From positions 292,578,001 through 292,642,000 of the forward strand of contig OZ024742.1 in the NCBI GenBank assembly GCA_964016885.1: a stretch of 64,000 nucleotides of DNA, read 5' to 3'. Positions 19,839 through 64,000 of the stretch are shown one piece after another. Origin of the DNA: Eledone cirrhosa (taxonomy: Eukaryota). A program made the position numbers and the translations under genes. How positions within the stretch are numbered: position 1 is the first letter of the stretch; the number at the start of each line of letters is the position of its first letter. The notes beneath the pieces are model-generated. The model was not told the DNA's origin. It searched no databases and was given only the letters and a program-made list of their open reading frames with translations.

Positions 19839-19976
19839 CTTGCCATTGCCTCATTTCATTTTACTTTAAATCAATAACAATTTTCTTCCATATTCTCTTT
19901 AATCATTATCAAACAAATATACACTAAATTACAACTTTGTTCTACATATCTGTCTATCTATCAATCTATTTATCTA

Positions 19977-27187: not shown

Positions 27188-27344
27188 TATCTATCCATTT
27201 GTTAATAAAAAAGATAACTATCGTTTGACAGTCAGACAGATAATTACTTGTGCACCTAGATTCTTAACAGTTGCAGTAGTTTCTATGCATACAACGAGAA
27301 ATAACAGCAGCCTACATCATTAGGTTTGAGGACCAGTCAGAAGT

Positions 27345-27772
27345 GCCATCATAAAATACACCCAGTACACTCTGTAAAGTGGTAGTGCTGGTGTCATGAT
27401 AAAATACACCCAGTATACTCTGTAAAGTGGTAGAATTGATACCATGATAAAATATACCCAGTTTACTCTGTAAAGGGGTACAGCCAGTGTCATGATAGAA
27501 TACACCCAGTACACTTTGTAAAGTAGTAGAGCTGATACTATGATAAAATACACTCAGTACATCTTGTAAAGTGGTGGTGCTGGTGCCATAATAAAATGCA
27601 CTTAGTACACTCTGTAAAGTAGTTGATGTTAGGAAGGACATCCAGCTATAGAAACCATGTCAAAATATGGAATATATGAGTAAGATACAGTACTATGACC
27701 TATCTAATCTCTGGCAGTGACAGCCCATCTAACTCATGGCAGCATGGAAAATGGACATAGAATAGTGATGAT
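27345..27772 (+). repeat. 48-bp tandem repeat (6 copies) grading into an RTE-type 3' tail
   Basis: ATAAAATACACCCAGTACACTCTGTAAAGTGG units start at 27351, 27399, 27447, 27495, 27543, 27591; then TTAGGAAGGACATCCAGC and CATGGAAAATGGAC. Confidence 0.85.
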
Positions 27773-35325: not shown

Positions 35326-35848
35326 TTTCCTACTATATACAGTGTAAAACTAATAATATATTTCTTCATTGTACTTATTATTACTATACATATATATACA
35401 TGTGTATAAGAATGTCTATGTATGAGCGTGTGTGTGTCTGTGTTTCCATATCTATGCTTATGTTTGTGCCTGTATTTTTGTTTATGGATCATAATTTCAT
35501 AATTTAGCAGTTCAACAAAGGGAGATTGATGAAGTAGGTACCAGACGGGAAAGATAGGTAAAAAAATATATAGTGGGACCAATATGATTGACTAATTGAC
35601 AAAAATCCCTTGAAGACAGTGCCCCAGTATGGTCACAGTCAAAGATTGAAACCAGTAAAAAAATAAATAAATAAAGGAACATGATGATGATGGCTTGAAA
35701 CACAAATATTAATTGATGCAAAAAATGCAAAAAGATTACTGAACTGTTAAATATGATAAATAATATAGAATATAAATATATATGATTGAAAAAAACTTAG
35801 ATTAATACAGGGTTTGGTGTTTATGTAATAGCCTGTAGTAGTAGATTA

Positions 35849-38800
35849 TTAATAGATATATCTAGTCATAAACACAACTATATTACTGAGTCAAGGTGAT
35901 ACCTTAATAGATATATCTAGTCATAAACACAACTATATTACTGAGTCAAGGTGATAGCTTAATAGATATATCTGGTCATAAACACAACTATACTTAGTCA
36001 AGGTGATAGCTTAATAGATATATCTGGTCATAAACACAACTATACTGAGTCAAGGTGATAGCTTAATAGATATATCTAGTCATAAACACAACTATATTAC
36101 TGAGTCAAGGTGATAGCTTAATAGATATATCTGGTCATAAACACAACTATACTTAGTCAAGGTGATAGCTTAATAGATATATCTGGTCATAAACACAACT
36201 ATACTGAGTCAAGGTGATAGCTTAATAGATATATCTAGTCATAAACACAACTATATTACTGAGTCAAGGTGATAGCTTAATAGATATATCTAGTCATAAA
36301 CACAACTATATTACTGAGTCAAGGTGATAGCTTAATAGATATATCTAGTCATAAACACAACTATACTGAGTCAAGGTGATAGCTTATTAGATATATCTGG
36401 TCATAAACACAACTATACCGAGTTAAGGTGATAGCTTAATAGATATATCTGGTCATAAACACAACTATACTGAGTCAAGGTGATAGATTAATAGATATAT
36501 CTAGTCATAAACACAACTATACTGAGTCAAGGTGATAGCTTAATAGATATATCTAGTCATAAACACAACTATATAACTGAGTCAAGGTGATAGCTTAATA
36601 GATATATCTAGTCATAAACACAACTATATTACTGAGTCAAGGTGATAGCTTAATAGATATATCTGGTCATAAACACAACTATACTGTGTCAAGGTGATAG
36701 CTTAATAGATATATCTAGTCATAAACACAACTATATTACTGAGTCAAGGTGATAGCTTAATAGATATATCTAGTCATAAACACAACTATATTACTGAGTC
36801 AAGGTGATAGCTTAATAGATATATCTAGTCATAAACACAACTATACTGAGTCAAGGTGATAGCTTAATAGATATATCTGGTCATAAACACAACTATACTG
36901 AGACAAGGTGATAGCTTAATAGATATATCTAGTCATAAACACAACTATATTACTGAGTCAAGGTGATAGCTTAATAGATATATCTAGTCATAAACACAAC
37001 TATACTGAGTCAAGGTGATAGCTTATTAGATATATCTGGTCATAAACACAACTATACCGAGTTAAGGTGATAGCTTAATAGATATATCTGGTCATAAACA
37101 CAACTATACTGAGTCAAGGTGATAGATTAATAGATATATCTAGTCATAAACACAACTATACTGAGTCAAGGTGATAGCTTAATAGATATATCTAGTCATA
37201 AACACAACTATATAACTGAGTCAAGGTGATAGCTTAATAGATATATCTAGTCATAAACACAACTATATTACTGAGTCAAGGTGATAGCTTAATAGATATA
37301 TCTGGTCATAAACACAACTATACTGTGTCAAGGTGATAGCTTAATAGATATATCTAGTCATAAACACAACTATATTACTGAGTCAAGGTGATAGCTTAAT
37401 AGATATATCTAGTCATAAACACAACTATACTGAGTCAAGGTGATAGCTTAATAGATATATCTGGTCATAAACACAACTATACCAAGTTAAGGTGATAGCT
37501 TAATAGATATATCTGGTCATAAACACAACTATACTGAGTCAAGGTGATAGCTTAATAGATATATCTAGTCATAAACACAACTATACTGAGTCAAGGTGAT
37601 AGCTTAATAGATATATCTAGTCATAAACACAACTATGTAATTGAGTCAAGGTGATAGCTTAATAGATATATCTAGTCATAAACACAACTATATTACTGAG
37701 TCAAGGTGATAGCTTAATAGATATATCTGGTCATAAACACAACTATACTGTGTCAAGGTGATAGCTTAATAGATATATCTAGTCATAAACACAACTATAT
37801 TACTGAGTCAAAGTGATAGCTTAATAGATATATCTAGTCATAAACACAACTATATTACTGAGTCAAGGTGATAGCTTAATAGATATATCTAGTCATAAAC
37901 ACAACTATACTGAGTCAAGTTGATAGCTTAATAGATATATCTGGTCATAAACACAACTATACTGAGTCAAGGTGATAGCTTAATAGATATATCTAGTCAT
38001 AAACACAACTATATTACTGAGTCAAGGTGATAGCTTAATAGATATATCTAGTCATAAACACAACTATATTACTGAGTCAAGGTGATAGCTTAATAGATAT
38101 ATCTGGTCATAAACACAACTATACCGAGTTAAGGTGATAGATTAATAGATATATCTGGTCATAAACACAACTATACTGAGTCAAGGTGATAGCTTAATAG
38201 ATATATCTAGTCATAAACACAACTATATTACTGAGTCAAGGTGATAGCTTAATAGATATATCTAGTCATAAACACAACTATATTACTGAGTCAAGGTGAT
38301 AGCTTAATAGATATATCTAGTCATAAACACGACTATATTACTGAGTCAAGGTGATAGCTTAATAGATATATCTGGTCATAAACACAACTATACCGAGTTA
38401 AGGTGATAGCTTAATAGATATATCTGGTCATAAACACAACTATACTGAGTCAAGGTGATAGCTTAATAGATATATCTAGTCATAAACACAACTATTCTGA
38501 GTCAAGGTGATAGCTTAATAGATATATCTAGTCATAAACACAACTATATAACTGAGTCAAGCTGATAGCTTAATAGATATATGTAGTCATAAACACAACT
38601 TTATTACTGAGTCAAGGTGATAGCTTAATAGATATATCTAGTCATAAACACAACTATACTGTGTCAAGGTGATAGCTTAATAGATATATCTAGTCATAAA
38701 CACAACTATATTACTGAGTCAAGGTGATAGCTTAATAGATATATCTAGTCATAAACACAACTTTATTACTGAGTCAAGGTGATAGCTTAATAGATATATC

Positions 38801-41800
38801 TAGTCATAAACACAACTATACTGAGTCAAGGTGATAGCTTAATAGATATATCTGGTCATAAACACAACTATACTGAGTCAAGGTGGTAGCTTAATAGATA
38901 TATCTAGTCATAAACACAACTATATTACTGAGTCAAGGTGATAGCTTAATAGATATATCTAGTCATAAACACAACTATATTACTGAGTCAAGGTGATAGC
39001 TTAATAGACATATCTAGTCATAAACACAACTATATTACTGATTCAAGGTGATAGCTTAATAGATATATCTAGTCATAAACACAACTATATTACTGAGTCA
39101 AGGTGATAGCTTAATAGATATATCTGGTCATAAACACAACTCTACTGAGTCAAGGTGATAGCTTAATAGATATATCTAGTCGTAAACACAACTATATAAC
39201 TGAGTCAAGGTGATAGCTTAATAGATATATCTAGTCATAAACACAACTATACTGAGTCAAGATGATAGCTTAATAGATATATCTGGTCATAAACACAACT
39301 ATACTGAGTCAAGGTGATAGCTTAATAGATATATCTGGTCAAAAACACAACTATACTGTGTCAAGGTGATAGCTTAATAGATATATCTAGTCATAAACAC
39401 AACTATATTACTGAGTCAAGATGATGGCTTAATAGATATATCTAGTCATAAACACAACTATATTACTGAGTCAAGGTGTTAGCTTAATAGATATATCTAG
39501 TCATAAACACAACTATACTGAGTCAAGGTGATAGCTTAATAGATATATCTGGTTATAAACACAACTATACTGAGTCAAGGTGATAGCTTAATAGATATAT
39601 CTAGTCATAAACACAACTATATTACTGAGTCAAGGTGATAGCTTAATAGATATATCTAGTCATAAACACAACTATATTACTGAGTCAAGGTGATAGCTTA
39701 ATAGATATATCTAGTCATAAACACAACTATATTACTGAGTCAAGGTGATAGCTTAATAGATATATCTAGTCATAAACACAACTATACTGAGTCAAGGTGA
39801 TAGCTTAATAGATATATCTGGTCATAAACACAACTATACTGAGACAAGGTGATAGCTTAATAGATATATCTAGTCATAAACACAACTATATTACTGAGTC
39901 AAGGTGATAGCTTAATAGATATATCTAGTCATAAACACAACTATACTGAGTCAAGGTGATAGCTTATTAGATATATCTGGTCATAAACACAACTATACCG
40001 AGTTAAGGTGATAGCTTAATAGATATATCTGGTCATAAACACAACTATACTGAGTCAAGGTGATAGATTAATAGATATATCTAGTCATAAACACAACTAT
40101 ACTGAGTCAAGGTGATAGCTTAATAGATATATCTAGTCATAAACACAACTATATAACTGAGTCAAGGTGATAGCTTAATAGATATATCTAGTCATAAACA
40201 CAACTATATTACTGAGTCAAGGTGATAGCTTAATAGATATATCTGGTCATAAACACAACTATACTGTGTCAAGGTGATAGCTTAATAGATATATCTAGTC
40301 ATAAACACAACTATATTACTGAGTCAAGGTGATAGCTTAATAGATATATCTAGTCATAAACACAACTATACTGAGTCAAGGTGATAGCTTAATAGATATA
40401 TCTGGTCATAAACACAACTATACCAAGTTAAGGTGATAGCTTAATAGATATATCTGGTCATAAACACAACTATACTGAGTCAAGGTGATAGCTTAATAGA
40501 TATATCTAGTCATAAACACAACTATACTGAGTCAAGGTGATAGCTTAATAGATATATCTAGTCATAAACACAACTATGTAATTGAGTCAAGGTGATAGCT
40601 TAATAGATATATCTAGTCATAAACACAACTATATTACTGAGTCAAGGTGATAGCTTAATAGATATATCTGGTCATAAACACAACTATACTGTGTCAAGGT
40701 GATAGCTTAATAGATATATCTAGTCATAAACACAACTATATTACTGAGTCAAAGTGATAGCTTAATAGATATATCTAGTCATAAACACAACTATATTACT
40801 GAGTCAAGGTGATAGCTTAATAGATATATCTAGTCATAAACACAACTATACTGAGTCAAGGTGATAGCTTAATAGATATATCTGGTCATAAACACAACTA
40901 TACTGAGTCAAGGTGATAGCTTAATAGATATATCTAGTCATAAACACAACTATATTACTGAGTCAAGGTGATAGCTTAATAGATATATCTAGTCATAAAC
41001 ACAACTATATTACTGAGTCAAGGTGATAGCTTAATAGATATATCTGGTCATAAACACAACTATACCGAGTTAAGGTGATAGATTAATAGATATATCTGGT
41101 CATAAACACAACTATACTGAGTCAAGGTGATAGCTTAATAGATATATCTAGTCATAAACACAACTATATTACTGAGTCAAGGTGATAGCTTAATAGATAT
41201 ATCTAGTCATAAACACAACTATATTACTGAGTCAAGGTGATAGCTTAATAGATATATCTGGTCATAAACACAACTATACCGAGTTAAGGTGATAGCTTAA
41301 TAGATATATCTGGTCATAAACACAACTATACTGAGTCAAGGTGATAGCTTAATAGATATATCTAGTCATAAACACAACTATTCTGAGTCAAGGTGATAGC
41401 TTAATAGATATATCTAGTCATAAACACAACTATATAACTGAGTCAAGCTGATAGCTTAATAGATATATGTAGTCATAAACACAACTTTATTACTGAGTCA
41501 AGGTGATAGCTTAATAGATATATCTAGTCATAAACACAACTATACTGTGTCAAGGTGATAGCTTAATAGATATATCTAGTCATAAACACAACTATATTAC
41601 TGAGTCAAGGTGATAGCTTAATAGATATATCTAGTCATAAACACAACTTTATTACTGAGTCAAGGTGATAGCTTAATAGATATATCTAGTCATAAACACA
41701 ACTATACTGAGTCAAGGTGATAGCTTAATAGATATATCTGGTCATAAACACAACTATACTGAGTCAAGGTGGTAGCTTAATAGATATATCTAGTCATAAA

Positions 41801-44800
41801 CACAACTATATTACTGAGTCAAGGTGATAGCTTAATAGATATATCTAGTCATAAACACAACTATATTACTGAGTCAAGGTGATAGCTTAATAGACATATC
41901 TAGTCATAAACACAACTATATTACTGATTCAAGGTGATAGCTTAATAGATATATCTAGTCATAAACACAACTATATTACTGAGTCAAGGTGATAGCTTAA
42001 TAGATATATCTGGTCATAAACACAACTCTACTGAGTCAAGGTGATAGCTTAATAGATATATCTAGTCGTAAACACAACTATATAACTGAGTCAAGGTGAT
42101 AGCTTAATAGATATATCTAGTCATAAACACAACTATACTGAGTCAAGGTGATAGCTTAATAGATATATCTGGTCATAAACACAACTATACTGAGTCAAGG
42201 TGATAGCTTAATAGATATATCTGGTCAAAAACACAACTATACTGTGTCAAGGTGATAGCTTAATAGATATATCTAGTCATAAACACAACTATATTACTGA
42301 GTCAAGATGATGGCTTAATAGATATATCTAGTCATAAACACAACTATATTACTGAGTCAAGGTGTTAGCTTAATAGATATATCTAGTCATAAACACAACT
42401 ATACTGAGTCAAGGTGATAGCTTAATAGATATATCTGGTTATAAACACAACTATACTGAGTCAAGGTGATAGCTTAATAGATATATCTAGTCATAAACAC
42501 AACTATATTACTGAGTCAAGGTGATAGCTTAATAGATATATCTAGTCATAAACACAACTATATTACTGAGTCAAGGTGATAGCTTAATAGATATATCTAG
42601 TCATAAACACAACTATATTACTGAGTCAAGGTGATAGCTTAATAGATATATCTAGTCATAAACACAACTATACTGAGTCAAGGTGATAGCTTAATAGATA
42701 TATCTGGTCATAAACACAACTATACCGAGTTAAGGTGATAGCTTAATAGATATATCTGGTCATAAACACAACTATACTGAGTCAAGGTGATAGTTTAATA
42801 GATATATCTAGTCATAAACACAACTATACTGAGTCAAGGTGATAGCTTAATAGATATATCTAGTCATAAACACAACTATATAACTGAGTCAAGGTGATAG
42901 CTTAATAGATATATCTAGTCATAAACACAACTATATTACTGAGTCAAGGTGATAGATTAATAGATATATCTGGTCATAAACACAACTATACTGTGTCAAG
43001 GTGATAGCTTAATAGATATATCTAGTCATAAACACAACTATATTACTGAGTCAAGATGATAGCTTAATAGATATATCTAGTCATAAACACAACTATATTA
43101 CAGAGTCAAGGTGATAGCTTAATAGATATATCTAGTCATAAACACAACTATATTACTGAGTCAAGGTGATACCTTAATAGATATATCTAGTCATAAACAC
43201 AACTATATTACTGAGTCAAGGTGATAGCTTAATAGATATATCTGGTCATAAACACAACTATACTTAGTCAAGGTGATAGCTTAATAGATATATCTGGTCA
43301 TAAACACAACTATACTGAGTCAAGGTGATAGCTTAATAGATATATCTAGTCATAAACACAACTATATTACTGAGTCAAGGTGATAGCTTAATAGATATAT
43401 CTAGTCATAATCACAACTATATTACTGAGTCAAGGTGATAGCTTAATAGATATATCTAGTCATAAACACAACTATACTGAGTCAAGGTGGTAGCTTAATA
43501 GATATATCTAGTCATAAACACAACTATATTACTGAGTCAAGGTGATAGCTTAATAGATATATCTAGTCATAAACACAACTATATTACTGAGTCAAGGTGA
43601 TAGCTTAATAGACATATCTAGTCATAAACACAACTATATTACTGATTCAAGGTGATAGCTTAATAGATATATCTAGTCATAAACACAACTATATTACTGA
43701 GTCAAGGTGATAGCTTAATAGATATATCTGGTCATAAACACAACTCTACTGAGTCAAGGTGATAGCTTAATAGATATATCTAGTCGTAAACACAACTATA
43801 TAACTGAGTCAAGGTGATAGCTTAATAGATATATCTAGTCATAAACACAACTATACTGAGTCAAGGTGATAGCTTAATAGATATATCTGGTCATAAACAC
43901 AACTATACTGAGTCAAGGTGATAGCTTAATAGATATATCTGGTCAAAAACACAACTATACTGTGTCAAGGTGATAGCTTAATAGATATATCTAGTCATAA
44001 ACACAACTATATTACTGAGTCAAGATGATGGCTTAATAGATATATCTAGTCATAAACACAACTATATTACTGAGTCAAGGTGTTAGCTTAATAGATATAT
44101 CTAGTCATAAACACAACTATACTGAGTCAAGGTGATAGCTTAATAGATATATCTGGTTATAAACACAACTATACTGAGTCAAGGTGATAGCTTAATAGAT
44201 ATATCTAGTCATAAACACAACTATATTACTGAGTCAAGGTGATAGCTTAATAGATATATCTAGTCATAAACACAACTATATTACTGAGTCAAGGTGATAG
44301 CTTAATAGATATATCTAGTCATAAACACAACTATATTACTGAGTCAAGGTGATAGCTTAATAGATATATCTAGTCATAAACACAACTATACTGAGTCAAG
44401 GTGATAGCTTAATAGATATATCTGGTCATAAACACAACTATACCGAGTTAAGGTGATAGCTTAATAGATATATCTGGTCATAAACACAACTATACTGAGT
44501 CAAGGTGATAGTTTAATAGATATATCTAGTCATAAACACAACTATACTGAGTCAAGGTGATAGCTTAATAGATATATCTAGTCATAAACACAACTATATA
44601 ACTGAGTCAAGGTGATAGCTTAATAGATATATCTAGTCATAAACACAACTATATTACTGAGTCAAGGTGATAGATTAATAGATATATCTGGTCATAAACA
44701 CAACTATACTGTGTCAAGGTGATAGCTTAATAGATATATCTAGTCATAAACACAACTATATTACTGAGTCAAGATGATAGCTTAATAGATATATCTAGTC

Positions 44801-47800
44801 ATAAACACAACTATATTACAGAGTCAAGGTGATAGCTTAATAGATATATCTAGTCATAAACACAACTATATTACTGAGTCAAGGTGATACCTTAATAGAT
44901 ATATCTAGTCATAAACACAACTATATTACTGAGTCAAGGTGATAGCTTAATAGATATATCTGGTCATAAACACAACTATACTTAGTCAAGGTGATAGCTT
45001 AATAGATATATCTGGTCATAAACACAACTATACTGAGTCAAGGTGATAGCTTAATAGATATATCTAGTCATAAACACAACTATATTACTGAGTCAAGGTG
45101 ATAGCTTAATAGATATATCTAGTCATAAACACAACTATATTACTGAGTCAAGGTGATAGCTTAATAGATATATCTAGTCATAAACACAACTATACTGAGT
45201 CAAGGTGGTAGCTTAATAGATATATCTAGTCATAAACACAACTATATTACTGAGTCAAGGTGATAGCTTAATAGATATATCTAGTCATAAACACAACTAT
45301 ATTACTGAGTCAAGGTGATAGCTTAATAGACATATCTAGTCATAAACACAACTATATTACTGATTCAAGGTGATAGCTTAATAGATATATCTAGTCATAA
45401 ACACAACTATATTACTGAGTCAAGGTGATAGCTTAATAGATATATCTGGTCATAAACACAACTCTACTGAGTCAAGGTGATAGCTTAATAGATATATCTA
45501 GTCGTAAACACAACTATATAACTGAGTCAAGGTGATAGCTTAATAGATATATCTAGTCATAAACACAACTATACTGAGTCAAGGTGATAGCTTAATAGAT
45601 ATATCTGGTCATAAACACAACTATACTGAGTCAAGGTGATAGCTTAATAGATATATCTGGTCAAAAACACAACTATACTGTGTCAAGGTGATAGCTTAAT
45701 AGATATATCTAGTCATAAACACAACTATATTACTGAGTCAAGATGATGGCTTAATAGATATATCTAGTCATAAACACAACTATATTACTGAGTCAAGGTG
45801 TTAGCTTAATAGATATATCTAGTCATAAACACAACTATACTGAGTCAAGGTGATAGCTTAATAGATATATCTGGTTATAAACACAACTATACTGAGTCAA
45901 GGTGATAGCTTAATAGATATATCTAGTCATAAACACAACTATATTACTGAGTCAAGGTGATAGCTTAATAGATATATCTAGTCATAAACACAACTATATT
46001 ACTGAGTCAAGGTGATAGCTTAATAGATATATCTAGTCATAAACACAACTATATTACTGAGTCAAGGTGATAGCTTAATAGATATATCTAGTCATAAACA
46101 CAACTATACTGAGTCAAGGTGATAGCTTAATAGATATATCTGGTCATAAACACAACTATACCGAGTTAAGGTGATAGCTTAATAGATATATCTGGTCATA
46201 AACACAACTATACTGAGTCAAGGTGATAGTTTAATAGATATATCTAGTCATAAACACAACTATACTGAGTCAAGGTGATAGCTTAATAGATATATCTAGT
46301 CATAAACACAACTATATAACTGAGTCAAGGTGATAGCTTAATAGATATATCTAGTCATAAACACAACTATATTACTGAGTCAAGGTGATAGATTAATAGA
46401 TATATCTGGTCATAAACACAACTATACTGTGTCAAGGTGATAGCTTAATAGATATATCTAGTCATAAACACAACTATATTACTGAGTCAAGATGATAGCT
46501 TAATAGATATATCTAGTCATAAACACAACTATATTACAGAGTCAAGGTGATAGCTTAATAGATATATCTAGTCATAAACACAACTATATTACTGAGTCAA
46601 GGTGATACCTTAATAGATATATCTAGTCATAAACACAACTATATTACTGAGTCAAGGTGATAGCTTAATAGATATATCTGGTCATAAACACAACTATACT
46701 TAGTCAAGGTGATAGCTTAATAGATATATCTGGTCATAAACACAACTATACTGAGTCAAGGTGATAGCTTAATAGATATATCTAGTCATAAACACAACTA
46801 TATTACTGAGTCAAGGTGATAGCTTAATAGATATATCTAGTCATAAACACAACTATATTACTGAGTCAAGGTGATAGCTTAATAGATATATCTAGTCATA
46901 AACACAACTATACTGAGTCAAGGTGATAGCTTATTAGATATATCTGGTCATAAACACAACTATACCGAGTTAAGGTGATAGCTTAATAGATATATCTGGT
47001 CATAAACACAACTATACTGAGTCAAGGTGATAGATTAATAGATATATCTAGTCATAAACACAACTATACTGAGTCAAGGTGATAGCTTAATAGATATATC
47101 TAGTCATAAACACAACTATATAACTGAGTCAAGGTGATAGCTTAATAGATATATCTAGTCATAAACACAACTATATTACTGAGTCAAGGTGATAGCTTAA
47201 TAGATATATCTGGTCATAAACACAACTATAATGTGTCAAGGTGATAGCTTAATAGATATATCTAGTCATAAACACAACTATATTACTGAGTCAAGGTGAT
47301 AGCTTAATAGATATATCTAGTCATAAACACAACTATATTACTGAGTGAAGGTGATAGCTTAATAGATATATCTAGTCATAAACACAACTATACTGAGTCA
47401 AGGTGATAGCTTAATAGATATATCTGGTCATAAGCACAACTATACTGAGTCAAGGTGATAGCTTAATAGATATATCTAGTCGTAAACACAACTATATAAC
47501 TGAGTCAAGGTGATAGCTTAATAGATATATCTAGTCATAAACACAACTATACTGAGTCAAGGTGATAGCTTAATAGATATATCTGGTCATAAACACAACT
47601 ATACTGAGTCAAGGTGATAGCTTAATAGATATATCTGGTCAAAACACAACTATACTGTGTCAAGGTGATAGCTTAATAGATATATCTAGTCATAAACACA
47701 ACTATATTACTGAGTCAAGATGATAGCTTAATAGATATATCTAGTCATAAACACAACTATATTACTGAGTCAAGGTGTTAGCTTAATAGATATATCTAGT

Positions 47801-50800
47801 CATAAACACAACTATACTGAGTCAAGGTGATAGCTTAATAGATATATCTGGTTATAAACACAACTATACTGAGTCAAGGTGATAGCTTAATAGATATATC
47901 TAGTCATAAACACAACTATATTACTGAGTCAAGGTGATAGCTTAATAGACATATCTAGTCATAAACACAACTATATTACTGATTCAAGGTGATAGCTTAA
48001 TAGATATATCTAGTCATAAACACAACTATATTACTGAGTCAAGGTGATAGCTTAATAGATATATCTGGTCATAAACACAACTCTACTGAGTCAAGGTGAT
48101 AGCTTAATAGATATATCTAGTCGTAAACACAACTATATAACTGAGTCAAGGTGATAGCTTAATAGATATATCTAGTCATAAACACAACTATACTGAGTCA
48201 AGGTGATAGCTTAATAGATATATCTGGTCATAAACACAACTATACTGAGTCAAGGTGATAGCTTAATAGATATATCTGGTCAAAAACACAACTATACTGT
48301 GTCAAGGTGATAGCTTAATAGATATATCTAGTCATAAACACAACTATATTACTGAGTCAAGATGATGGCTTAATAGATATATCTAGTCATAAACACAACT
48401 ATATTACTGAGTCAAGGTGTTAGCTTAATAGATATATCTAGTCATAAACACAACTATACTGAGTCAAGGTGATAGCTTAATAGATATATCTGGTTATAAA
48501 CACAACTATACTGAGTCAAGGTGATAGCTTAATAGATATATCTAGTCATAAACACAACTATATTACTGAGTCAAGGTGATAGCTTAATAGATATATCTAG
48601 TCATAAACACAACTATATTACTGAGTCAAGGTGATAGCTTAATAGATATATCTAGTCATAAACACAACTATATTACTGAGTCAAGGTGATAGCTTAATAG
48701 ATATATCTAGTCATAAACACAACTATACTGAGTCAAGGTGATAGCTTAATAGATATATCTGGTCATAAACACAACTATACCGAGTTAAGGTGATAGCTTA
48801 ATAGATATATCTGGTCATAAACACAACTATACTGAGTCAAGGTGATAGTTTAATAGATATATCTAGTCATAAACACAACTATACTGAGTCAAGGTGATAG
48901 CTTAATAGATATATCTAGTCATAAACACAACTATATAACTGAGTCAAGGTGATAGCTTAATAGATATATCTAGTCATAAACACAACTATATTACTGAGTC
49001 AAGGTGATAGATTAATAGATATATCTGGTCATAAACACAACTATACTGTGTCAAGGTGATAGCTTAATAGATATATCTAGTCATAAACACAACTATATTA
49101 CTGAGTCAAGATGATAGCTTAATAGATATATCTAGTCATAAACACAACTATATTACAGAGTCAAGGTGATAGCTTAATAGATATATCTAGTCATAAACAC
49201 AACTATATTACTGAGTCAAGGTGATACCTTAATAGATATATCTAGTCATAAACACAACTATATTACTGAGTCAAGGTGATAGCTTAATAGATATATCTGG
49301 TCATAAACACAACTATACTTAGTCAAGGTGATAGCTTAATAGATATATCTGGTCATAAACACAACTATACTGAGTCAAGGTGATAGCTTAATAGATATAT
49401 CTAGTCATAAACACAACTATATTACTGAGTCAAGGTGATAGCTTAATAGATATATCTAGTCATAAACACAACTATATTACTGAGTCAAGGTGATAGCTTA
49501 ATAGATATATCTAGTCATAAACACAACTATACTGAGTCAAGGTGGTAGCTTAATAGATATATCTAGTCATAAACACAACTATATTACTGAGTCAAGGTGA
49601 TAGCTTAATAGATATATCTAGTCATAAACACAACTATATTACTGAGTCAAGGTGATAGCTTAATAGACATATCTAGTCATAAACACAACTATATTACTGA
49701 TTCAAGGTGATAGCTTAATAGATATATCTAGTCATAAACACAACTATATTACTGAGTCAAGGTGATAGCTTAATAGATATATCTGGTCATAAACACAACT
49801 CTACTGAGTCAAGGTGATAGCTTAATAGATATATCTAGTCGTAAACACAACTATATAACTGAGTCAAGGTGATAGCTTAATAGATATATCTAGTCATAAA
49901 CACAACTATACTGAGTCAAGGTGATAGCTTAATAGATATATCTGGTCATAAACACAACTATACTGAGTCAAGGTGATAGCTTATTAGATATATCTGGTCA
50001 AAAACACAACTATACTGTGTCAAGGTGATAGCTTAATAGATATATCTAGTCATAAACACAACTATATTACTGAGTCAAGATGATGGCTTAATAGATATAT
50101 CTAGTCATAAACACAACTATATTACTGAGTCAAGGTGTTAGCTTAATAGATATATCTAGTCATAAACACAACTATACTGAGTCAAGGTGATAGCTTAATA
50201 GATATATCTGGTTATAAACACAACTATACTGAGTCAAGGTGATAGCTTAATAGATATATCTAGTCATAAACACAACTATATTACTGAGTCAAGGTGATAG
50301 CTTAATAGATATATCTAGTCATAAACACAACTATATTACTGAGTCAAGGTGATAGCTTAATAGATATATCTAGTCATAAACACAACTATATTACTGAGTC
50401 AAGGTGATAGCTTAATAGATATATCTAGTCATAAACACAACTATACTGAGTCAAGGTGATAGCTTAATAGATATATCTGGTCATAAACACAACTATACCG
50501 AGTTAAGGTGATAGCTTAATAGATATATCTGGTCATAAACACAACTATACTGAGTCAAGGTGATAGTTTAATAGATATATCTAGTCATAAACACAACTAT
50601 ACTGAGTCAAGGTGATAGCTTAATAGATATATCTAGTCATAAACACAACTATATAACTGAGTCAAGGTGATAGCTTAATAGATATATCTAGTCATAAACA
50701 CAACTATATTACTGAGTCAAGGTGATAGATTAATAGATATATCTGGTCATAAACACAACTATACTGTGTCAAGGTGATAGCTTAATAGATATATCTAGTC

Positions 50801-53800
50801 ATAAACACAACTATATTACTGAGTCAAGATGATAGCTTAATAGATATATCTAGTCATAAACACAACTATATTACAGAGTCAAGGTGATAGCTTAATAGAT
50901 ATATCTAGTCATAAACACAACTATATTACTGAGTCAAGGTGATACCTTAATAGATATATCTAGTCATAAACACAACTATATTACTGAGTCAAGGTGATAG
51001 CTTAATAGATATATCTGGTCACAAACACAACTATACTTAGTCAAGGTGATAGCTTAATAGATATATCTGGTCATAAACACAACTATACTGAGTCAAGGTG
51101 ATAGCTTAATAGATATATCTAGTCATAAACACAACTATATTACTGAGTCAAGGTGATAGCTTAATAGATATATCTAGTCATAAACACAACTATATTACTG
51201 AGTCAAGGTGATAGCTTAATAGATATATCTAGTCATAAACACAACTATACTGAGTCAAGGTGGTAGCTTAATAGATATATCTAGTCATAAACACAACTAT
51301 ATTACTGAGTCAAGGTGATAGCTTAATAGATATATCTAGTCATAAACACAACTATATTACTGAGTCAAGGTGATAGCTTAATAGACATATCTAGTCATAA
51401 ACACAACTATATTACTGATTCAAGGTGATAGCTTAATAGATATATCTAGTCATAAACACAACTATATTACTGAGTCAAGGTGATAGCTTAATAGATATAT
51501 CTGGTCATAAACACAACTCTACTGAGTCAAGGTGATAGCTTAATAGATATATCTAGTCGTAAACACAACTATATAACTGAGTCAAGGTGATAGCTTAATA
51601 GATATATCTAGTCATAAACACAACTATACTGAGTCAAGGTGATAGCTTAATAGATATATCTGGTCATAAACACAACTATACTGAGTCAAGGTGATAGCTT
51701 AATAGATATATCTGGTCAAAAACACAACTATACTGTGTCAAGGTGATAGCTTAATAGATATATCTAGTCATAAACACAACTATATTACTGAGTCAAGATG
51801 ATGGCTTAATAGATATATCTAGTCATAAACACAACTATATTACTGAGTCAAGGTGTTAGCTTAATAGATATATCTAGTCATAAACACAACTATACTGAGT
51901 CAAGGTGATAGCTTAATAGATATATCTGGTTATAAACACAACTATACTGAGTCAAGGTGATAGCTTAATAGATATATCTAGTCATAAACACAACTATATT
52001 ACTGAGTCAAGGTGATAGCTTAATAGATATATCTAGTCATAAACACAACTATATTACTGAGTCAAGGTGATAGCTTAATAGATATATCTAGTCATAAACA
52101 CAACTATATTACTGAGTCAAGGTGATAGCTTAATAGATATATCTAGTCATAAACACAACTATACTGAGTCAAGGTGATAGCTTAATAGATATATCTGGTC
52201 ATAAACACAACTATACCGAGTTAAGGTGATAGCTTAATAGATATATCTGGTCATAAACACAACTATACTGAGTCAAGGTGATAGTTTAATAGATATATCT
52301 AGTCATAAACACAACTATACTGAGTCAAGGTGATAGCTTAATAGATATATCTAGTCATAAACACAACTATATAACTGAGTCAAGGTGATAGCTTAATAGA
52401 TATATCTAGTCATAAACACAACTATATTACTGAGTCAAGGTGATAGATTAATAGATATATCTGGTCATAAACACAACTATACTGTGTCAAGGTGATAGCT
52501 TAATAGATATATCTAGTCATAAACACAACTATATTACTGAGTCAAGATGATAGCTTAATAGATATATCTAGTCATAAACACAACTATATTACAGAGTCAA
52601 GGTGATAGCTTAATAGATATATCTAGTCATAAACACAACTATATTACTGAGTCAAGGTGATACCTTAATAGATATATCTAGTCATAAACACAACTATATT
52701 ACTGAGTCAAGGTGATAGCTTAATAGATATATCTGGTCATAAACACAACTATACTTAGTCAAGGTGATAGCTTAATAGATATATCTGGTCATAAACACAA
52801 CTATACTGAGTCAAGGTGATAGCTTAATAGATATATCTAGTCATAAACACAACTATATTACTGAGTCAAGGTGATAGCTTAATAGATATATCTAGTCATA
52901 AACACAACTATATTACTGAGTCAAGGTGATAGCTTAATAGATATATCTAGTCATAAACACAACTATACTGAGTCAAGGTGATAGCTTATTAGATATATCT
53001 GGTCATAAACACAACTATACCGAGTTAAGGTGATAGCTTAATAGATATATCTGGTCATAAACACAACTATACTGAGTCAAGGTGATAGATTAATAGATAT
53101 ATCTAGTCATAAACACAACTATACTGAGTCAAGGTGATAGCTTAATAGATATATCTAGTCATAAACACAACTATATAACTGAGTCAAGGTGATAGCTTAA
53201 TAGATATATCTAGTCATAAACACAACTATATTACTGAGTCAAGGTGATAGCTTAATAGATATATCTGGTCATAAACACAACTATAATGTGTCAAGGTGAT
53301 AGCTTAATAGATATATCTAGTCATAAACACAACTATATTACTGAGTCGTCAAGGTGATAGCTTAATAGATATATCTAGTCATAAACACAACTATATTACT
53401 GAGTGAAGGTGATAGCTTAATAGATATATCTAGTCATAAACACAACTATACTGAGTCAAGGTGATAGCTTAATAGATATATCTGGTCATAAGCACAACTA
53501 TACTGAGTCAAGGTGATAGCTTAATAGATATATCTAGTCGTAAACACAACTATATAACTGAGTCAAGGTGATAGCTTAATAGATATATCTAGTCATAAAC
53601 ACAACTATACTGAGTCAAGGTGATAGCTTAATAGATATATCTGGTCATAAACACAACTATACTGAGTCAAGGTGATAGCTTAATAGATATATCTGGTCAA
53701 AACACAACTATACTGTGTCAAGGTGATAGCTTAATAGATATATCTAGTCATAAACACAACTATATTACTGAGTCAAGATGATAGCTTAATAGATATATCT

Positions 53801-56800
53801 AGTCATAAACACAACTATATTACTGAGTCAAGGTGTTAGCTTAATAGATATATCTAGTCATAAACACAACTATACTGAGTCAAGGTGATAGCTTAATAGA
53901 TATATCTGGTTATAAACACAACTATACTGAGTCAAGGTGATAGCTTAATAGATATATCTAGTCATAAACACAACTATATTACTGAGTCAAGGTGATAGCT
54001 TAATAGATATATCTAGTCATAAACACAACTATATTACTGAGTCAAGGTGATAGCTTAATAGATATATCTAGTCATAAACACAACTATACTGAGTCAAGGT
54101 GATAGCTTATTAGATATATCTGGTCATAAACACAACTATACCGAGTTAAGGTGATAGCTTAATAGATATATCTGGTCATAAACACAACTATACTGAGTCA
54201 AGGTGATAGATTAATAGATATATCTAGTCATAAACACAACTATACTGAGTCAAGGTGATAGCTTAATAGATATATCTAGTCATAAACACAACTATATAAC
54301 TGAGTCAAGGTGATAGCTTAATAGATATATCTAGTCATAAACACAACTATATTACTGAGTCAAGGTGATAGCTTAATAGATATATCTGGTCATAAACACA
54401 ACTATACTGTGTCAAGGTGATAGCTTAATAGATATATCTAGTCATAAACACAACTATATTACTGAGTCAAGGTGATAGCTTAATAGATATATCTAGTCAT
54501 AAACACAACTATATTACTGAGTGAAGGTGATAGCTTAATAGATATATCTAGTCATAAACACAACTATACTGAGTCAAGGTGATAGCTTAATAGATATATC
54601 TGGTCATAAGCACAACTATACTGAGTCAAGGTGATAGCTTAATAGTTATATCTAGTCGTAAACACAACTATATAACTGAGTCAAGGTGATAGCTTAATAG
54701 ATATATCTAGTCATAAACACAACTATACTGAGTCAAGGTGATAGCTTAATAGATATATCTGGTCATAAACACAACTATACTGAGTCAAGGTGATAGCTTA
54801 ATAGATATATCTGGTCAAAACACAACTATACTGTGTCAAGGTGATAGCTTAATAGATATATCTAGTCATAAACACAACTATATTACTGAGTCAAGATGAT
54901 AGCTTAATAGATATATCTAGTCATAAACACAACTATATTACTGAGTCAAGGTGTTAGCTTAATAGATATATCTAGTCATAAACACAACTATACTGAGTCA
55001 AGGTGATAGCTTAATAGATATATCTGGTTATAAACACAACTATACTGAGTCAAGGTGATAGCTTAATAGATATATCTAGTCATAAACACAACTATATTAC
55101 TGAGTCAAGGTGATAGCTTAATAGATATATCTAGTCATAAACACAACTATACTGAGTCAAGGTGATAGCTTAATAGATATATCTGGTCATAAACACAACT
55201 ATACCGAGTTAAGGTGATAGCTTAATAGATATATCTGGTCATAAACACAACTATACTGAGTCAAGGTGATAGTTTAATAGATATATCTAGTCATAAACAC
55301 AACTATACTGAGTCAAGGTGATAGCTTAATAGATATATCTAGTCATAAACACAACTATATAACTGAGTCAGGGTGATAGCTTAATAGATATATCTAGTCA
55401 TAAACACAACTATATTACTGAGTCAAGGTGATAGATTAATAGATATATCTGGTCATAAACACAACTATACTGTGTCAAGGTGATAGCTTAATAGATATAT
55501 CTAGTCATAAACACAACTATATTACTGAGTCAAGATGATAGCTTAATAGATATATCTAGTCATAAACACAACTATATTACTGAGTCATGGTGATACCTTA
55601 ATAGATATATCTAGTCATAAACACAACTATATTACTGAGTCAAGGTGATAGCTTAATAGATATATCTGGTCATAAACACAACTATACTTAGTCAAGGTGA
55701 TAGCTTAATAGATATATCTGGTCATAAACACAACTATACTGAGTCAAGGTGATAGCTTAATAGATATATCTAGTCATAAACACAACTATATTACTGAGTC
55801 AAGGTGATAGCTTAATAGATATATCTAGTCATAAACACAACTATATTACTGAGTCAAGGTGATAGCTTAATAGATATATCTAGTCATAAACACAACTATA
55901 CTGAGTCAAGGTGATAGCTTATTAGATATATCTGGTCATAAACACAACTATACCGAGTTAAGGTGATAGCTTAATAGATATATCTGGTCATAAACACAAC
56001 TATACTGAGTCAAGGTGATAGATTAATAGATATATCTAGTCATAAACACTACTATACTGAGTCAAGGTGATAGCTTAATAGATATATCTAGTCATAAACA
56101 CAACTATATTACTGAGTCAAGGTGATAGCTTAATAGATATATCTGGTCATAAACACAACTATACTGTGTCAAGGTGATAGCTTAATAGATATATCTAGTC
56201 ATAAACACAACTATATTACTGAGTCAAGGTGATAGCTTAATAGATATATCTAGTCATAAACACAACTATATTACTGAGTGAAGGTGATAGCTTAATAGAT
56301 ATATCTAGTCATAAACACAACTATACTGAGTCAAGGTGATAGCTTAATAGATATATCTGGTCATAAACACAACTATACTGAGTCAAGGTGATAGCTTAAT
56401 AGATATATCTAGTCATAAACACAACTATATTACTGAGTCAAGGTGATAGCTTAATAGATATATCTAGTCATAAACACAACTATACTGAGTCAAGGTGATA
56501 GCTTAATAGATATATCTGGTCATAAACACAACTATACCAAGTTAAGGTGATAGCTTAATAGATATATCTGGTCATAAACACAACTATACTGAGTCAAGGT
56601 GATAGCTTAATAGATATATCTAGTCATAAACACAACTATACTGAGTCAAGGTGATAGCTTAATAGATATATCTAGTCATAAACACAACTATATAATTGAG
56701 TCAAGGTGATAGCTTAATAGATATATCTAGTCATAAACACAACTATATTACTGAATCAAGGTGATAGCTTAATAGATATATCTGGTCATAAACACAACTA

Positions 56801-59800
56801 TACTGTGTCAAGGTGATAGCTTAATAGATATATCTAGTCATAAACACAACTATATTACTGAGTCAAAGTGATAGCTTAATAGATATATCTAGTCATAAAC
56901 ACAACTATATTACTGAGTCAAGGTGATAGCTTAATAGATATATCTAGTCATAAACACAACTATACTGAGTCAAGGTGATAGCTTAATAGATATATCTGGT
57001 CATAAACACAACTATACTGAGTCAAGGTGATAGCTTAATAGATATATCTACTCATAAACACAACTATATTACTGAGTCAAGGTGATAGCTTAATAGATAT
57101 ATCTAGTCATAAACACAACTATATTACTGAGTCAAGGTGATAGCTTAATAGATATATCTGGTCATAAACACAACTATACCGAGTTAAGGTGATAGCTTAA
57201 TAGATATATCTGGTCATAAACACAACAATACTGAGTCAAGGTGATAGCTTAATAGATATATCTAGTCATAAACACAACTATATTACTGAGTCAAGGTGAT
57301 AGCTTAATAGATATATCTAGTCATCAACACAACTATATTACTGAGTCAAGGTGATAGCTTAATAGATATATCTGGTCATAAACACAACTATACCGAGTTA
57401 AGGTGATAGCTTAATAGATATATCTGGTCATAAACACAACTATACTGAGTCAAGGTGATAGCTTAATAGATATATCTAGTCATAAACACAACTATTCTGA
57501 GTCAAGGTGATAGCTTAATAGATATATCTAGTCATAAACACAACTATATAACTGAGTCAAGCTGATAGCTTAATAGATATATGTAGTCATAAACACAACT
57601 TTATTACTGAGTCAAGGTGATAGCTTAATAGATATATCTAGTCATAAACACAACTATACTGTGTCAAGGTGATAGCTTAATAGATATATCTAGTCATAAA
57701 CACAACTATATTACTGAGTCAAGGTGATAGCTTAATAGATATATCTAGTCATAAACACAACTTTATTACTGAGTCAAGGTGATAGCTTAATAGATATATC
57801 TAGTGATAAACACAACTATACTGAGTCAAGGTGATAGCTTAATAGATATATCTGGTCATAAACACAACTATACTGAGTCAAGGTGGTAGCTTAATAGATA
57901 TATCTAGTCATAAACACAACTATATTACTGAGTCAAGGTGATAGCTTAATAGATATATCTAGTCATAAACACAACTATATTACTGAGTCAAGGTGATAGC
58001 TTAATAGACATATCTAGTCATAAACACAACTATATTACTGATTCAAGGTGATAGCTTAATAGATATATCTAGTCATAAACACAACTATATTACTGAGTCA
58101 AGGTGATAGCTTAATAGATATATCTGGTCATAAACACAACTCTACTGAGTCAAGGTGATAGCTTAATAGATATATCTAGTCGTAAACACAACTATATAAC
58201 TGAGTCAAGGTGATAGCTTAATAGATATATCTAGTCATAAACACAACTATACTGAGTCAAGGTGATAGCTTAATAGATATATCTGGTCATAAACACAACT
58301 ATACTGAGTCAAGGTGATAGCTTAATAGATATATCTGGTCAAAAACACAACTATACTGTGTCAAGGTGATAGCTTAATAGATATATCTAGTCATAAACAC
58401 AACTATATTACTGAGTCAAGATGATAGCTTAATAGATATATCTAGTCATAAACACAACTATATTACTGAGTCAAGGTGTTAGCTTAATAGATATATCTAG
58501 TCATAAACACAACTATACTGAGTCAAGGTGATAGCTTAATAGATATATCTGGTTATAAACACAACTATACTGAGTCAAGGTGATAGCTTAATAGATATAT
58601 CTAGTCATAAACACAACTATATTACTGAGTCAAGGTGATAGCTTAATAGATATATCTAGTCATAAACACAACTATATTACTGAGTCAAGGTGATAGCTTA
58701 ATAGATATATCTAGTCATAAACACAACTATATTACTGAGTCAAGGTGATAGCTTAATAGATATATCTAGTCATAAACACAACTATACTGAGTCAAGGTGA
58801 TAGCTTAATAGATATATCTGGTCATAAACACAACTATACCGAGTTAAGGTGATAGCTTAATAGATATATCTGGTCATAAACACAACTATACTGAGTCAAG
58901 GTGATAGTTTAATAGATATATCTAGTCGTAAACACAACTATATAACTGAGTCAAGGTGATAGCTTAATAGATATATCTAGTCATAAACACAACTATACTG
59001 AGTCAAGGTGATAGCTTAATAGATATATCTGGTCATAAACACAACTATACTGAGTCAAGGTGATAGCTTAATAGATATATCTACTCATAAACACAACTAT
59101 ATTACTGAGTCAAGGTGATAGCTTAATAGATATATCTAGTCATAAACACAACTATATTACTGAGTCAAGGTGATAGCTTAATAGATATATCTGGTCATAA
59201 ACACAACTATACCGAGTTAAGGTGATAGCTTAATAGATATATCTGGTCATAAACACAACTATACTGAGTCAAGGTGATAGCTTAATAGATATATCTAGTC
59301 ATAAACACAACTATATTACTGAGTCAAGGTGATAGCTTAATAGATATATCTAGTCATCAACACAACTATATTACTGAGTCAAGGTGATAGCTTAATAGAT
59401 ATATCTGGTCATAAACACAACTATACCGAGTTAAGGTGATAGCTTAATAGATATATCTGGTCATAAACACAACTATACTGAGTCAAGGTGATAGCTTAAT
59501 AGATATATCTAGTCATAAACACAACTATTCTGAGTCAAGGTGATAGCTTAATAGATATATCTAGTCATAAACACAACTATATAACTGAGTCAAGCTGATA
59601 GCTTAATAGATATATGTAGTCATAAACACAACTTTATTACTGAGTCAAGGTGATAGCTTAATAGATATATCTAGTCATAAACACAACTATACTGTGTCAA
59701 GGTGATAGCTTAATAGATATATCTAGTCATAAACACAACTATATTACTGAGTCAAGGTGATAGCTTAATAGATATATCTAGTCATAAACACAACTTTATT

Positions 59801-62800
59801 ACTGAGTCAAGGTGATAGCTTAATAGATATATCTAGTGATAAACACAACTATACTGAGTCAAGGTGATAGCTTAATAGATATATCTGGTCATAAACACAA
59901 CTATACTGAGTCAAGGTGGTAGCTTAATAGATATATCTAGTCATAAACACAACTATATTACTGAGTCAAGGTGATAGCTTAATAGATATATCTAGTCATA
60001 AACACAACTATATTACTGAGTCAAGGTGATAGCTTAATAGACATATCTAGTCATAAACACAACTATATTACTGATTCAAGGTGATAGCTTAATAGATATA
60101 TCTAGTCATAAACACAACTATATTACTGAGTCAAGGTGATAGCTTAATAGATATATCTGGTCATAAACACAACTCTACTGAGTCAAGGTGATAGCTTAAT
60201 AGATATATCTAGTCGTAAACACAACTATATAACTGAGTCAAGGTGATAGCTTAATAGATATATCTAGTCATAAACACAACTATACTGAGTCAAGGTGATA
60301 GCTTAATAGATATATCTGGTCATAAACACAGCTATACTGAGTCAAGGTGATAGCTTAATAGATATATCTGGTCAAAAACACAACTATACTGTGTCAAGGT
60401 GATAGCTTAATAGATATATCTAGTCATAAACACAACTATATTACTGAGTCAAGATGATAGCTTAATAGATATATCTAGTCATAAACACAACTATATTACT
60501 GAGTCAAGGTGTTAGCTTAATAGATATATCTAGTCATAAACACAACTATACTGAGTCAAGGTGATAGCTTAATAGATATATCTGGTTATAAACACAACTA
60601 TACTGAGTCAAAGTGATAGCTTAATAGATATATCTAGTCATAAACACAACTATATTACTGAGTCAAGGTGATAGCTTAATAGATATATCTAGTCATAAAC
60701 ACAACTATATTACTGAGTCAAGGTGATAGCTTAATAGATATATCTAGTCATAAACACAACTATATTACTGAGTCAAGGTGATAGCTTAATAGATATATCT
60801 AGTCATAAACACAACTATACTGAGTCAAGGTGATAGCTTAATAGATATATCTGGTCATAAACACAACTATACCGAGTTAAGGTGATAGCTTAATAGATAT
60901 ATCTGGTCATAAACACAACTATACTGAGTCAAGGTGATAGTTTAATAGATATATCTAGTCATAAACACAACTATACTGAGTCAAGGTGATAGCTTAATAG
61001 ATATATCTAGTCATAAACACAACTATATAACTGAGTCAAGGTGATAGCTTAATAGATATATCTAGTCATAAACACAACTATATTACTGAGTCAAGGTGAT
61101 AGATTAATAGATATATCTGGTCATAAACACAACTATACTGTGTCAAGGTGATAGCTTAATAGATATATCTAGTCATAAACACAACTATATTACTGAGTCA
61201 AGATGATAGCTTAATAGATATATCTAGTCATAAACACAACTATATTACAGAGTCAAGGTGATAGCTTAATAGATATATCTAGTCATAAACACAACTATAT
61301 TACTGAGTCAAGGTGATACCTTAATAGATATATCTAGTCATAAACACAACTATATTACTGAGTCAAGGTGATAGCTTAATAGATATATCTGGTCATAAAC
61401 ACAACTATACTTAGTCAAGGTGATAGCTTAATAGATATATCTGGTCATAAACACAACTATACTGAGTCAAGGTGATAGCTTAATAGATATATCTAGTCAT
61501 AAACACAACTATATTACTGAGTCAAGGTGATAGCTTAATAGATATATCTAGTCATAAACACAACTATATTACTGAGTCAAGGTGATAGCTTAATAGATAT
61601 ATCTAGTCATAAACACAACTATACTGAGTCAAGGTGATAGCTTATTAGATATATCTGGTCATAAACACAACTATACCGAGTTAAGGTGATAGCTTAATAG
61701 ATATATCTGGTCATAAACACAACTATACTGAGTCAAGGTGATAGATTAATAGATATATCTAGTCATAAACACAACTATACTGAGTCAAGGTGATAGCTTA
61801 ATAGATATATCTAGTCATAAACACAACTATATAACTGAGTCAAGGTGATAGCTTAATAGATATATCTAGTCATAAACACAACTATATTACTGAGTCAAGG
61901 TGATAGCTTAATAGATATATCTGGTCATAAACACAACTATACTGTGTCAAGGTGATAGCTTAATAGATATATCTAGTCATAAACACAACTATATTACTGA
62001 GTCAAGGTGATAGCTTAATAGATATATCTAGTCATAAACACAACTATATTACTGAGTGAAGGTGATAGCTTAATAGATATATCTAGTCATAAACACAACT
62101 ATACTGAGTCAAGGTGATAGCTTAATAGATATATCTGGTCATAAACACAACTATACTGAGTCAAGGTGATAGCTTAATAGATATATCTAGTCGTAAACAC
62201 AACTATATAACTGAGTCAAGGTGATAGCTTAATAGATATATCTAGTCATAAACACAACTATACTGAGTCAAGGTGATAGCTTAATAGATATATCTGGTCA
62301 TAAACACAACTATACTGAGTCAAGGTGATAGCTTAATAGATATATCTAGTCATAAACACAACTATATTACTGAGTCAAGGTGATAGCTTAATAGATATAT
62401 CTAGTCATAAACACAACTATATTACTGAGTCAAGGTGATAGCTTAATAGATATATCTAGTCATAAACACAACTATACTGAGTCAAGGTGATAGCTTAATA
62501 GATATATCTGGTCATAAACACAACTATACTGAGTCAAGGTGATAGCTTAATAGATATATCTAGTCGTAAACACAACTATATAACTGAGTCAAGGTGATAG
62601 CTTAATAGATATATCTAGTCATAAACACAACTATACTGAGTCAAGGTGATAGCTTAATAGATATATCTGGTCATAAACACAACTATACTGAGTCAAGGTG
62701 ATAGCTTAATAGATATATCTGGTCAAAAACACAACTATACTGTGTCAAGGTGATAGCTTAATAGATATATCTAGTCATAAACACAACTATATTACTGAGT

Positions 62801-64000
62801 CAAGGTGATAGCTTAATAGATATATCTAGTCATAAACACAACTATATTACTGAGTCAAGGTGATAGCTTAATAGATATATCTAGTCATAAACACAACTAT
62901 ATTACTGAGTCAAGGTGATAGCTTAATAGATATATCTAGTCATAAACACAACTATACTGAGTCAAGGTGATAGCTTAATAGATATATCTGGTCATAAACA
63001 CAACTATACCGAGTTAAGGTGATAGCTTAATAGATATATCTGGTCATAAACACAACTATACTGAGTCAAGGTGATAGTTTAATAGATATATCTAGTCATA
63101 AACACAACTATACTGAGTCAAGGTGATAGCTTAATAGATATATCTAGTCATAAACACAACTATATAACTGAGTCAAGGTGATAGCTTAATAGATATATCT
63201 AGTCATAAACACAACTATATTACTGAGTCAAGGTGATAGATTAATAGATATATCTGGTCATAAACACAACTATACTGTGTCAAGGTGATAGCTTAATAGA
63301 TATATCTAGTCATAAACACAACTATATTACTGAGTCAAGATGATAGCTTAATAGATATATCTCGTCATAAACACAACTATATTACTGAGTCAAGGTGATA
63401 GCTTAATAGATATATCTAGTCATAAACACAACTATATTACTGAGTCAAGGTGATAGCTTAATAGATATATCTAGTCATAAACACAACTATACTGAGTCAA
63501 GGTGATAGCTTATTAGATATATCTGGTCATAAACACAACTATACCGAGTTAAGGTGATAACTTAATAGATATATCTGGTCATAAACACAACTATACTGAA
63601 TCAAGGTGATAGATTAATAGATATATCTAGTCATAAACACTACTATACTGACTCAAGGTGATAGCTTAATAGATATATCTAGTCATAAACACAACTATAT
63701 AACTGAGTCAAGGTGATAGCTTAATAGATATATCTAGTCATAAACACAACTATATTACTGAGTCAAGGTGATAGCTTAATAGATATATCTGGTCATAAAC
63801 ACAACTATACTGTGTCAAGGTGATAGCTTAATAGATATATCTAGTCATAAACACAACTATATTACTGAGTCAAGGTGATAGCTTAATAGATATATCTAGT
63901 CATAAACACAACTATATTACTGAGTGAAGGTGATAGCTTAATAGATATATCTAGTCATAAACACAACTATACTGAGTCAAGGTGATAGCTTAATAGATAT
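35849..64000. repeat. Satellite DNA array, 52/55-bp monomers with higher-order structure (runs off window end)
   Basis: Consensus TTAATAGATATATCT(A/G)GTCATAAACACAACTATA(TTA)CTGAGTCAAGGTGATAGC, roughly 525 monomers by length; no ORFs in the track. Confidence 0.98.

Follow-up and report, generated by a model that had tools for sequence, protein, structure and literature searches.

A satellite of 55- and 52-bp monomers begins at position 35849 of a 64,000-nucleotide stretch of the Eledone cirrhosa genome (hereafter the window; C3:292,578,001-292,642,000, contig OZ024742.1 of assembly GCA_964016885.1) and continues beyond its end. Here we describe this satellite as a 354-kb array that occupies a single site on one chromosome, C3, and is common to no other chromosome. 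Our preferred reading, to which we assign a probability of about 0.8, is that the array is real and young, was likely born in place, and grew as blocks of ~1-6 kb were duplicated and deleted at random and in register, its higher-order repeats (HORs) being of an ordinary, local kind. Birth in place is suggested by a 71/72-bp minisatellite still preserved at the array's far end and by a 24-bp relic of it at the near edge, inside the window, both of which are new here. While the HORs themselves are an ordinary finding, the preserved progenitor makes the array a useful, if unsurprising, case. A gap-free array at one site with both flanks, a likely progenitor and late insertions of long interspersed nuclear elements (LINEs) offers a clean example of a 0.35-Mb satellite arising from unique DNA, and allows the sizes of block duplications to be measured outside plants and primates.

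Decomposition into monomers, as the original prediction had proposed, resolved the first part of the array (window 35849-64000, + strand, 30% GC) into 526 head-to-tail units in a single orientation: 262 of 55 bp, 259 of 52 bp, three of 51 bp, one of 58 bp and a final partial one, belonging to 61 types. When the next 400 kb were examined, the array was found to pass beyond window position 64000 by a further 326 kb, so that it extends from C3:292,613,849 to ~292,968,047, is free of Ns, and comprises 6,498 units of 462 types. Of the ~6,500 intervals, 6,232 measure 55 or 52 bp, and a few units are truncated or fused. Searched across the 3.0-Gb assembly, an exact 16-mer had all of its 4,799 matches within the array and on one strand (reversed control, 2 matches), as did 5,188 of the 5,189 matches of a second exact pattern, again on one strand (reversed control, 1 match). 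Since the monomer is confined to one locus, a single fluorescence in situ hybridization probe could mark it.

Random monomers differ by 3.1% substitutions per site, being thus ~97% identical, and pairs inside the window differ at 2.3 positions. Divergence is highest in the middle of the array, with 1.2-1.4 substitutions per monomer as against 0.6-1.1 elsewhere. CpG dinucleotides number 319 where ~8,000 would be expected; a methylation test of the array has little power because the commonest monomers contain none. We found no description of this 52/55-bp satellite in the open-access literature.

From the exact recurrence of rare variants, the original prediction had derived nested, recent HORs of 12, 32, 38, 55 and ~113 monomers. 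All eight marker variants are indeed present, seven of them at the predicted positions, and the eighth, GATACC, three bases earlier (43168/44886/46604 and 49223/50941/52659) with its spacings unchanged. The spacings corresponded to whole monomer counts in 12 of 12 cases checked (639 bp, 12 monomers; 2941 bp, 55; 1718 bp, 32; 6055 bp, 113; 2033 bp, 38), and the decomposition bore out the composition of the 1718-bp spacing as 18x55+14x52. Beyond the markers, matching extended across entire blocks: lag 113 gave 110 of 114 monomers in agreement, lag 32 gave 62 of 63 and 55 of 58, and lag 38 gave 34 of 37. When the order of monomers was shuffled 30 times, the best run had a score of 4-6, compared with ~98 for the 113-monomer block.

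The 113-monomer block (6055 bp, made of 32+32+49 monomers) is present in 2.01 copies at window 41832-53999 (+); over 6110 bp these copies differ by three substitutions and a single 3-bp indel. It surrounds two sets of the 32-monomer block (1718 bp), one of 2.97 copies at 41777-46878 (+; one substitution in 3384 bp) and another of 2.81 copies at 47887-52719 (+; three substitutions in 3115 bp). A 38-monomer block (2033 bp) occurs in 1.97 copies at 56931-60941 (+; three substitutions in 1978 bp), built from modules that recur in the 55- and 32-mers. At every level the copy number is ~2-3, and the copies in the window diverge by 0.03-0.15%; the inference of nested, recent and in-register block duplication is supported. 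Two of the predicted levels needed revision. The 55-mer (36702-42690, +; two copies) holds for 29 of 30 monomers at 2941 bp, then slips halfway, past a one-monomer indel, to a lag of 54 monomers (2886 bp; 26 of 27 identical). At lag 12 the spacing of 639 bp is as claimed, but monomer string and spacing show a match of nine monomers only (36277-36756 versus 36916-37395, +), and the marker of the supposed 12-mer recurs ten times at irregular distances. The lag-12 match is a partial copy and there is no true 12-mer HOR.

HOR inference was also carried out over the whole array, with a detector of tandem blocks that selects for near-identity and whose scoring began at block lengths of about 20 monomers. 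We found 192 long near-identical matches, which cover 80% of the monomers and whose partners all lie within 64 kb of each other (median distance 8.7 kb, maximum 63.6 kb). Tandem blocks numbered 29, with 23 distinct periods of 19-115 monomers (median 53, or 2.9 kb) and a maximum of 2.97 copies; their copies were 0-0.23% diverged in all 29 pairs, nine pairs being perfectly identical and 20 not. The array therefore contains many local, low-copy HORs and no dominant one. Its two ends share ~1% of their four-monomer words, and similarity between 20-kb bins decays along the diagonal and shows no layering in mirror image. Hence the layered symmetry of a young core between older matching flanks is not seen in this array, whose divergence peaks in the middle, though relics of the progenitor do lie at its edges. 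Autocorrelation of the 52/55 pattern (+0.09 at lag 1, -0.15 at lag 2) revealed no A/B alternation of monomers, and the CENP-B box core had no match on either strand.

To place these features we compared them with systems described in published work. In maize, HORs are local, have ~3 copies and occur also in non-centromeric knobs, and no class of HOR marks the functional centromere (PMC13011684); in Arabidopsis lines, duplications of 1-31 whole units were observed directly (10.1101/2025.06.02.657473). Like maize CentC and knob repeats and Arabidopsis CEN178, as these two sources present them, our array combines near-identical monomers with many local HORs of ~3 copies, none of them dominant, with kilobase tandem duplications of whole units and with locally homogenized blocks. 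By its low-copy, confined patterns and its register-keeping whole-unit indels, the array fits this local-HOR type of satellite. It differs in monomer length (52/55 bp as opposed to the 178 bp of CEN178), in block length (a median of 53 monomers or 2.9 kb, where HiReNET, another kind of detector, gives ~4 monomers and the mean Arabidopsis insertion is 1.9 kb), and in being one 0.35-Mb locus with a progenitor still visible and no known role in centromere function or drive. With primate alpha-satellite, as portrayed in PMC8997354, it shares nearly identical copies of multi-monomer blocks, nesting, and an older sequence type kept at the edge. The likeness to alpha-satellite that had been suggested nevertheless does not hold: monomers are ~97% identical instead of 50-70%, the 23 periods have at most three copies each, no canonical HOR is reiterated, A/B dimers and a CENP-B box are missing, and neither sequence nor unit length is related.

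Evidence on the origin of the array comes from its two edges. Immediately left of the first monomer lies a 24-bp relic (35825-35848, +), the left seed, which matches the final 24 bp of a 71-bp unit at 23 positions and contains 16 bp that are absent from the 55-mer. At the far end of the array a 3.6-kb block occurs twice, its two copies together carrying 15 full 71/72-bp units and two hybrid ones; compared with the 55-mer, the 71-mer has these 16 bp in addition and differs by a few substitutions. The right boundary closes with a variant of the left-seed motif. An 18-mer across the seed had 13 matches in 3.0 Gb, one at the left edge and 12 at the far end of the array, whereas a seed pattern fitting the longer allele only had five matches at the array and one on C7. 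At two sites the 71/72-mers combine left-seed with right-seed-like alleles in all four possible ways, which would be expected if the first duplication was seeded by two imperfect direct repeats. Thus an imperfect direct repeat stands at both array boundaries and is also part of the founding unit, the configuration by which minisatellite seeding is recognized. In a DNA search no dispersed copy of the 71-mer was present among the best 150 of 255 matches listed, all of which lie at this locus; an origin of the monomer from a transposon was rejected on the same result.

The birth of minisatellites through short flanking direct repeats goes back to Haber and Louis 1998, as cited in PMC6947457. As in that model, the direct repeats on both sides of our array are imperfect and are included in the progenitor unit; unlike it, the seeds measure ~23 bp instead of 5-10 bp, the unit length likely changed twice (71, 55, 52 bp), and the copies number ~6,500.

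A sequence of events can be proposed on these grounds. Two imperfect direct repeats of ~23 bp, 71-72 bp apart, would have seeded the first duplication and so given rise to the 71/72-bp minisatellite; loss of 16 bp, together with a few substitutions, would then have produced the 55-mer, and a 3-bp deletion the 52-mer. We infer this order (seeds, 71/72-mer, 55-mer, 52-mer) from sequence comparison; directly observed are how the array is built, its confinement to a single site, its insertions and the relics at its edges. Next, out-of-register homology-directed repair may have copied blocks of whole monomers beside themselves, by break-induced or restarted replication or by unequal sister exchange. 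The original prediction had named unequal exchange; this and break-induced replication are not separable from one haplotype. Newer duplications would cut across older ones, so that blocks would become nested, modules would be reused and every event would introduce another period. The HORs are thus likely to be footprints of the latest duplication events rather than functional units. Late insertion of LINEs would have been the final step.

Five insertions, representing four events, interrupt the array. Two are young LINE copies with apparent target duplications of 8-10 bp at AT-rich sites, one of them within a palindrome of the monomer. These two insertions, which lie past the end of the window, show 98.7% and 99.2% identity to a 5'-truncated LINE copy in the flank (window 19976-20964, +). 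Because one of the two is present in just one copy of an 81-monomer duplication, it likely postdates that duplication. A further insertion, of ~200 bp, at C3 ~292,833,190-292,833,400, had no match in the flanks examined.

For a rough estimate of age, we borrowed the rate of 2.4e-9 per base per generation given for another octopus in PMC13669787. The age of the window blocks would then be on the order of 1e5 generations, and the diversity of monomers would reflect on the order of 1e6-1e7 generations. These rough figures are probably upper bounds, because conversion raises apparent rates in arrays.

Growth without selection could be reproduced in silico. In 12 neutral simulations in which blocks were duplicated and deleted at random and point mutations arose, with block sizes of 5-120 monomers taken from the data, we obtained 17-41 tandem blocks, 14-30 periods and maximum copy numbers of 2.0-3.1, ranges that include the observed 29 blocks, 23 periods and 3.0 copies. 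We also considered selection on the 52/55 mix, the mean period of which is near five helical turns, and rejected it, as the standard deviation between bins (0.06) was not below that of the neutral simulations. Most likely, then, the array is selectively neutral DNA within a satellite-prone stretch of a chromosome arm.

Several points nevertheless weigh against this reading. The simulation proves sufficiency and not cause: because its block sizes were set from the data, it shows only that selection is not needed. The direction from 71 to 55 bp is read from the flanks of this one locus. At 354 kb, the array exceeds each of its three neighbours, whose lengths were measured or estimated, by more than 15-fold, a size that neutrality permits but does not predict. 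A 12-bp perfect palindrome, present in 4,087 of 6,475 monomers and absent from the 71-mer, could have favoured expansion or function once the amplified monomer had gained it; 4.5% of shuffled sequences reach 12 bp. Finally, individual blocks are known from the assembled sequence, in which nine of the 29 tandem pairs are perfectly identical.

Chromosome-specific centromeric satellites are known in chicken and potato. The centromeric role that had been proposed for the satellite is not favoured by our data, but it is the alternative that survives best. The array would then be, or lie in, the functional centromere of C3, and its growth by the same duplication mechanism would be driven by fork stalling associated with the kinetochore. 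We regard this as unlikely. A broader version, in which octopod centromeres are marked by unrelated, chromosome-private satellites of ~0.35 Mb, each having arisen in place out of unique sequence or the end of a transposon, and in which this one is the C3 centromere with its whole genealogy visible, down to the perfect palindrome gained by the variant that prevailed, seems to us equally improbable. Our search of the open-access literature returned no description of cephalopod centromeric DNA. The nested low-copy blocks, being expected of any young, locally duplicating array, are uninformative on centromere function, and maize HORs do not mark centromeres (PMC13011684). By sampling, the array is the largest within ~2 Mb; it is AT-rich and uniform and has gained a dyad, and short dyads are reported at centromeres that have no CENP-B boxes (PMC8997354). 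Yet neither the CENP-B box core nor an excess of single-strand folding was found (the latter in three of three stretches, z -0.2 to 0.5), CpG is almost lacking, mirror layering is absent, and the middle of the array is its most diverged part. Long arrays fill most of two of 20 nearby 4-kb samples, compared with none of 20 chromosome-wide (one of which had at least 1.9 kb), numbers too few for significance. The array is, however, only 0.35 Mb long and confined to a single site, with other unrelated arrays close by; centromeric satellites are commonly, though not necessarily, present on many chromosomes. A C2H2 zinc-finger open reading frame (ORF) and an intact-looking two-exon SLC52A3-like gene lie 19 kb and 30 kb, respectively, from its end. 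Its position at 77% of the 379-Mb C3 also contrasts with recombination maps of two other octopus species, which in PMC13669787 fit mid-chromosome centromeres on many large chromosomes, although this evidence is weak.

It is less likely still that some or all of the duplicated blocks are assembly artefacts, with two haplotypes or reads placed in tandem. The nine perfectly identical pairs, most with exactly two copies, would fit this explanation, and a haplotype placed twice would likewise yield two slightly different copies. Perfect pairs, however, numbered 7-30 in the neutral simulations as well, and 20 of 29 pairs do differ. Moreover, the 32-mer is present in about six copies whose shared and private variants are nested, which exceeds what two haplotypes can supply, and the array contains no Ns. 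Read-derived contigs, which leave the monomers unphased and whose source may be the assembled sample itself, reached a depth of 78,000-165,000 on the monomer compared with 11.7 on the unique flank, a thousands-fold excess that is not a copy number, and one such contig spans the left junction with no differences. These comparisons drew on four of 12 public runs, among which no RNA data set was listed. Two reduced-representation runs from other samples under the same species label had no reads on the monomer and at most a trace on the flank (35704-35847), and are uninformative on the presence of the array in other individuals. A run under another organism label contained the monomer and the exact LINE junction near C3:292.95 Mb and none of the unique flank; this may reflect carry-over or a shared array and was not counted. 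A read-contig joint from 35725 to 35851, with a side of 22 bases, was set aside as weak.

The preferred reading of stepwise local growth has one last competitor, for which we see hardly any chance: laying down of the array at once by rolling-circle amplification or from a retrotransposed circular template would account for its single orientation, sharp ends and high identity, but rolling circle predicts one period repeated many times, which the 23 periods of at most three copies largely refute, and the 71-mer has no dispersed copy among the matches listed above, the seeds belong to both flanks, and a scan of Rfam gave no match at E up to 1.

Three other, unrelated arrays lie within 0.9 Mb, one of them intronic. 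A 48-bp-unit array of 22.5 kb and 470 copies (C3:292,999,296-293,021,864) fills the intron of the two-exon SLC52A3-like riboflavin transporter gene, and its right end runs into what we take to be the body of a short interspersed nuclear element. The best named matches of a gene neighbouring the satellite are from Octopus sinensis (81%) and Argonauta (73%). A short array related to the 48-bp unit is found at window 27343-27623. The 39-bp-unit array at C3:291.80 Mb has 401 exact matches on one strand, those among the 100 listed all falling here, and the 87-bp-unit array at C3:293.48 Mb holds 36 of 36 genome-wide matches. The C2H2 zinc-finger ORF, of 364 codons on the - strand, is located at C3 ~292,987,053-292,988,144.

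No large satellite was met in 20 samples along C3, a sampling far too sparse for exclusion. Equally too sparse to exclude a genome-wide satellite were samples of the first 1-4 kb of 20 small contigs among the 1,796, which consisted mostly of (AT)n or (AG)n apart from one array with an 18-bp unit; this tandem repeat takes up the whole 4 kb sampled from an unplaced 41-kb contig (C800:1-4000).

The left part of the window contains further repeats. A longer, frameshifted LINE at ~21.5-27.0 kb is ~82% identical to the short flanking LINE and has endonuclease (just under the curated cut-off), RVT_1 and zinc-binding domains. Broken LINE pieces bearing reverse transcriptase cluster on both strands at 9.8-16.2 kb, and a degenerate (CAC)n triplet array of 1.3 kb occupies positions 998-2349.

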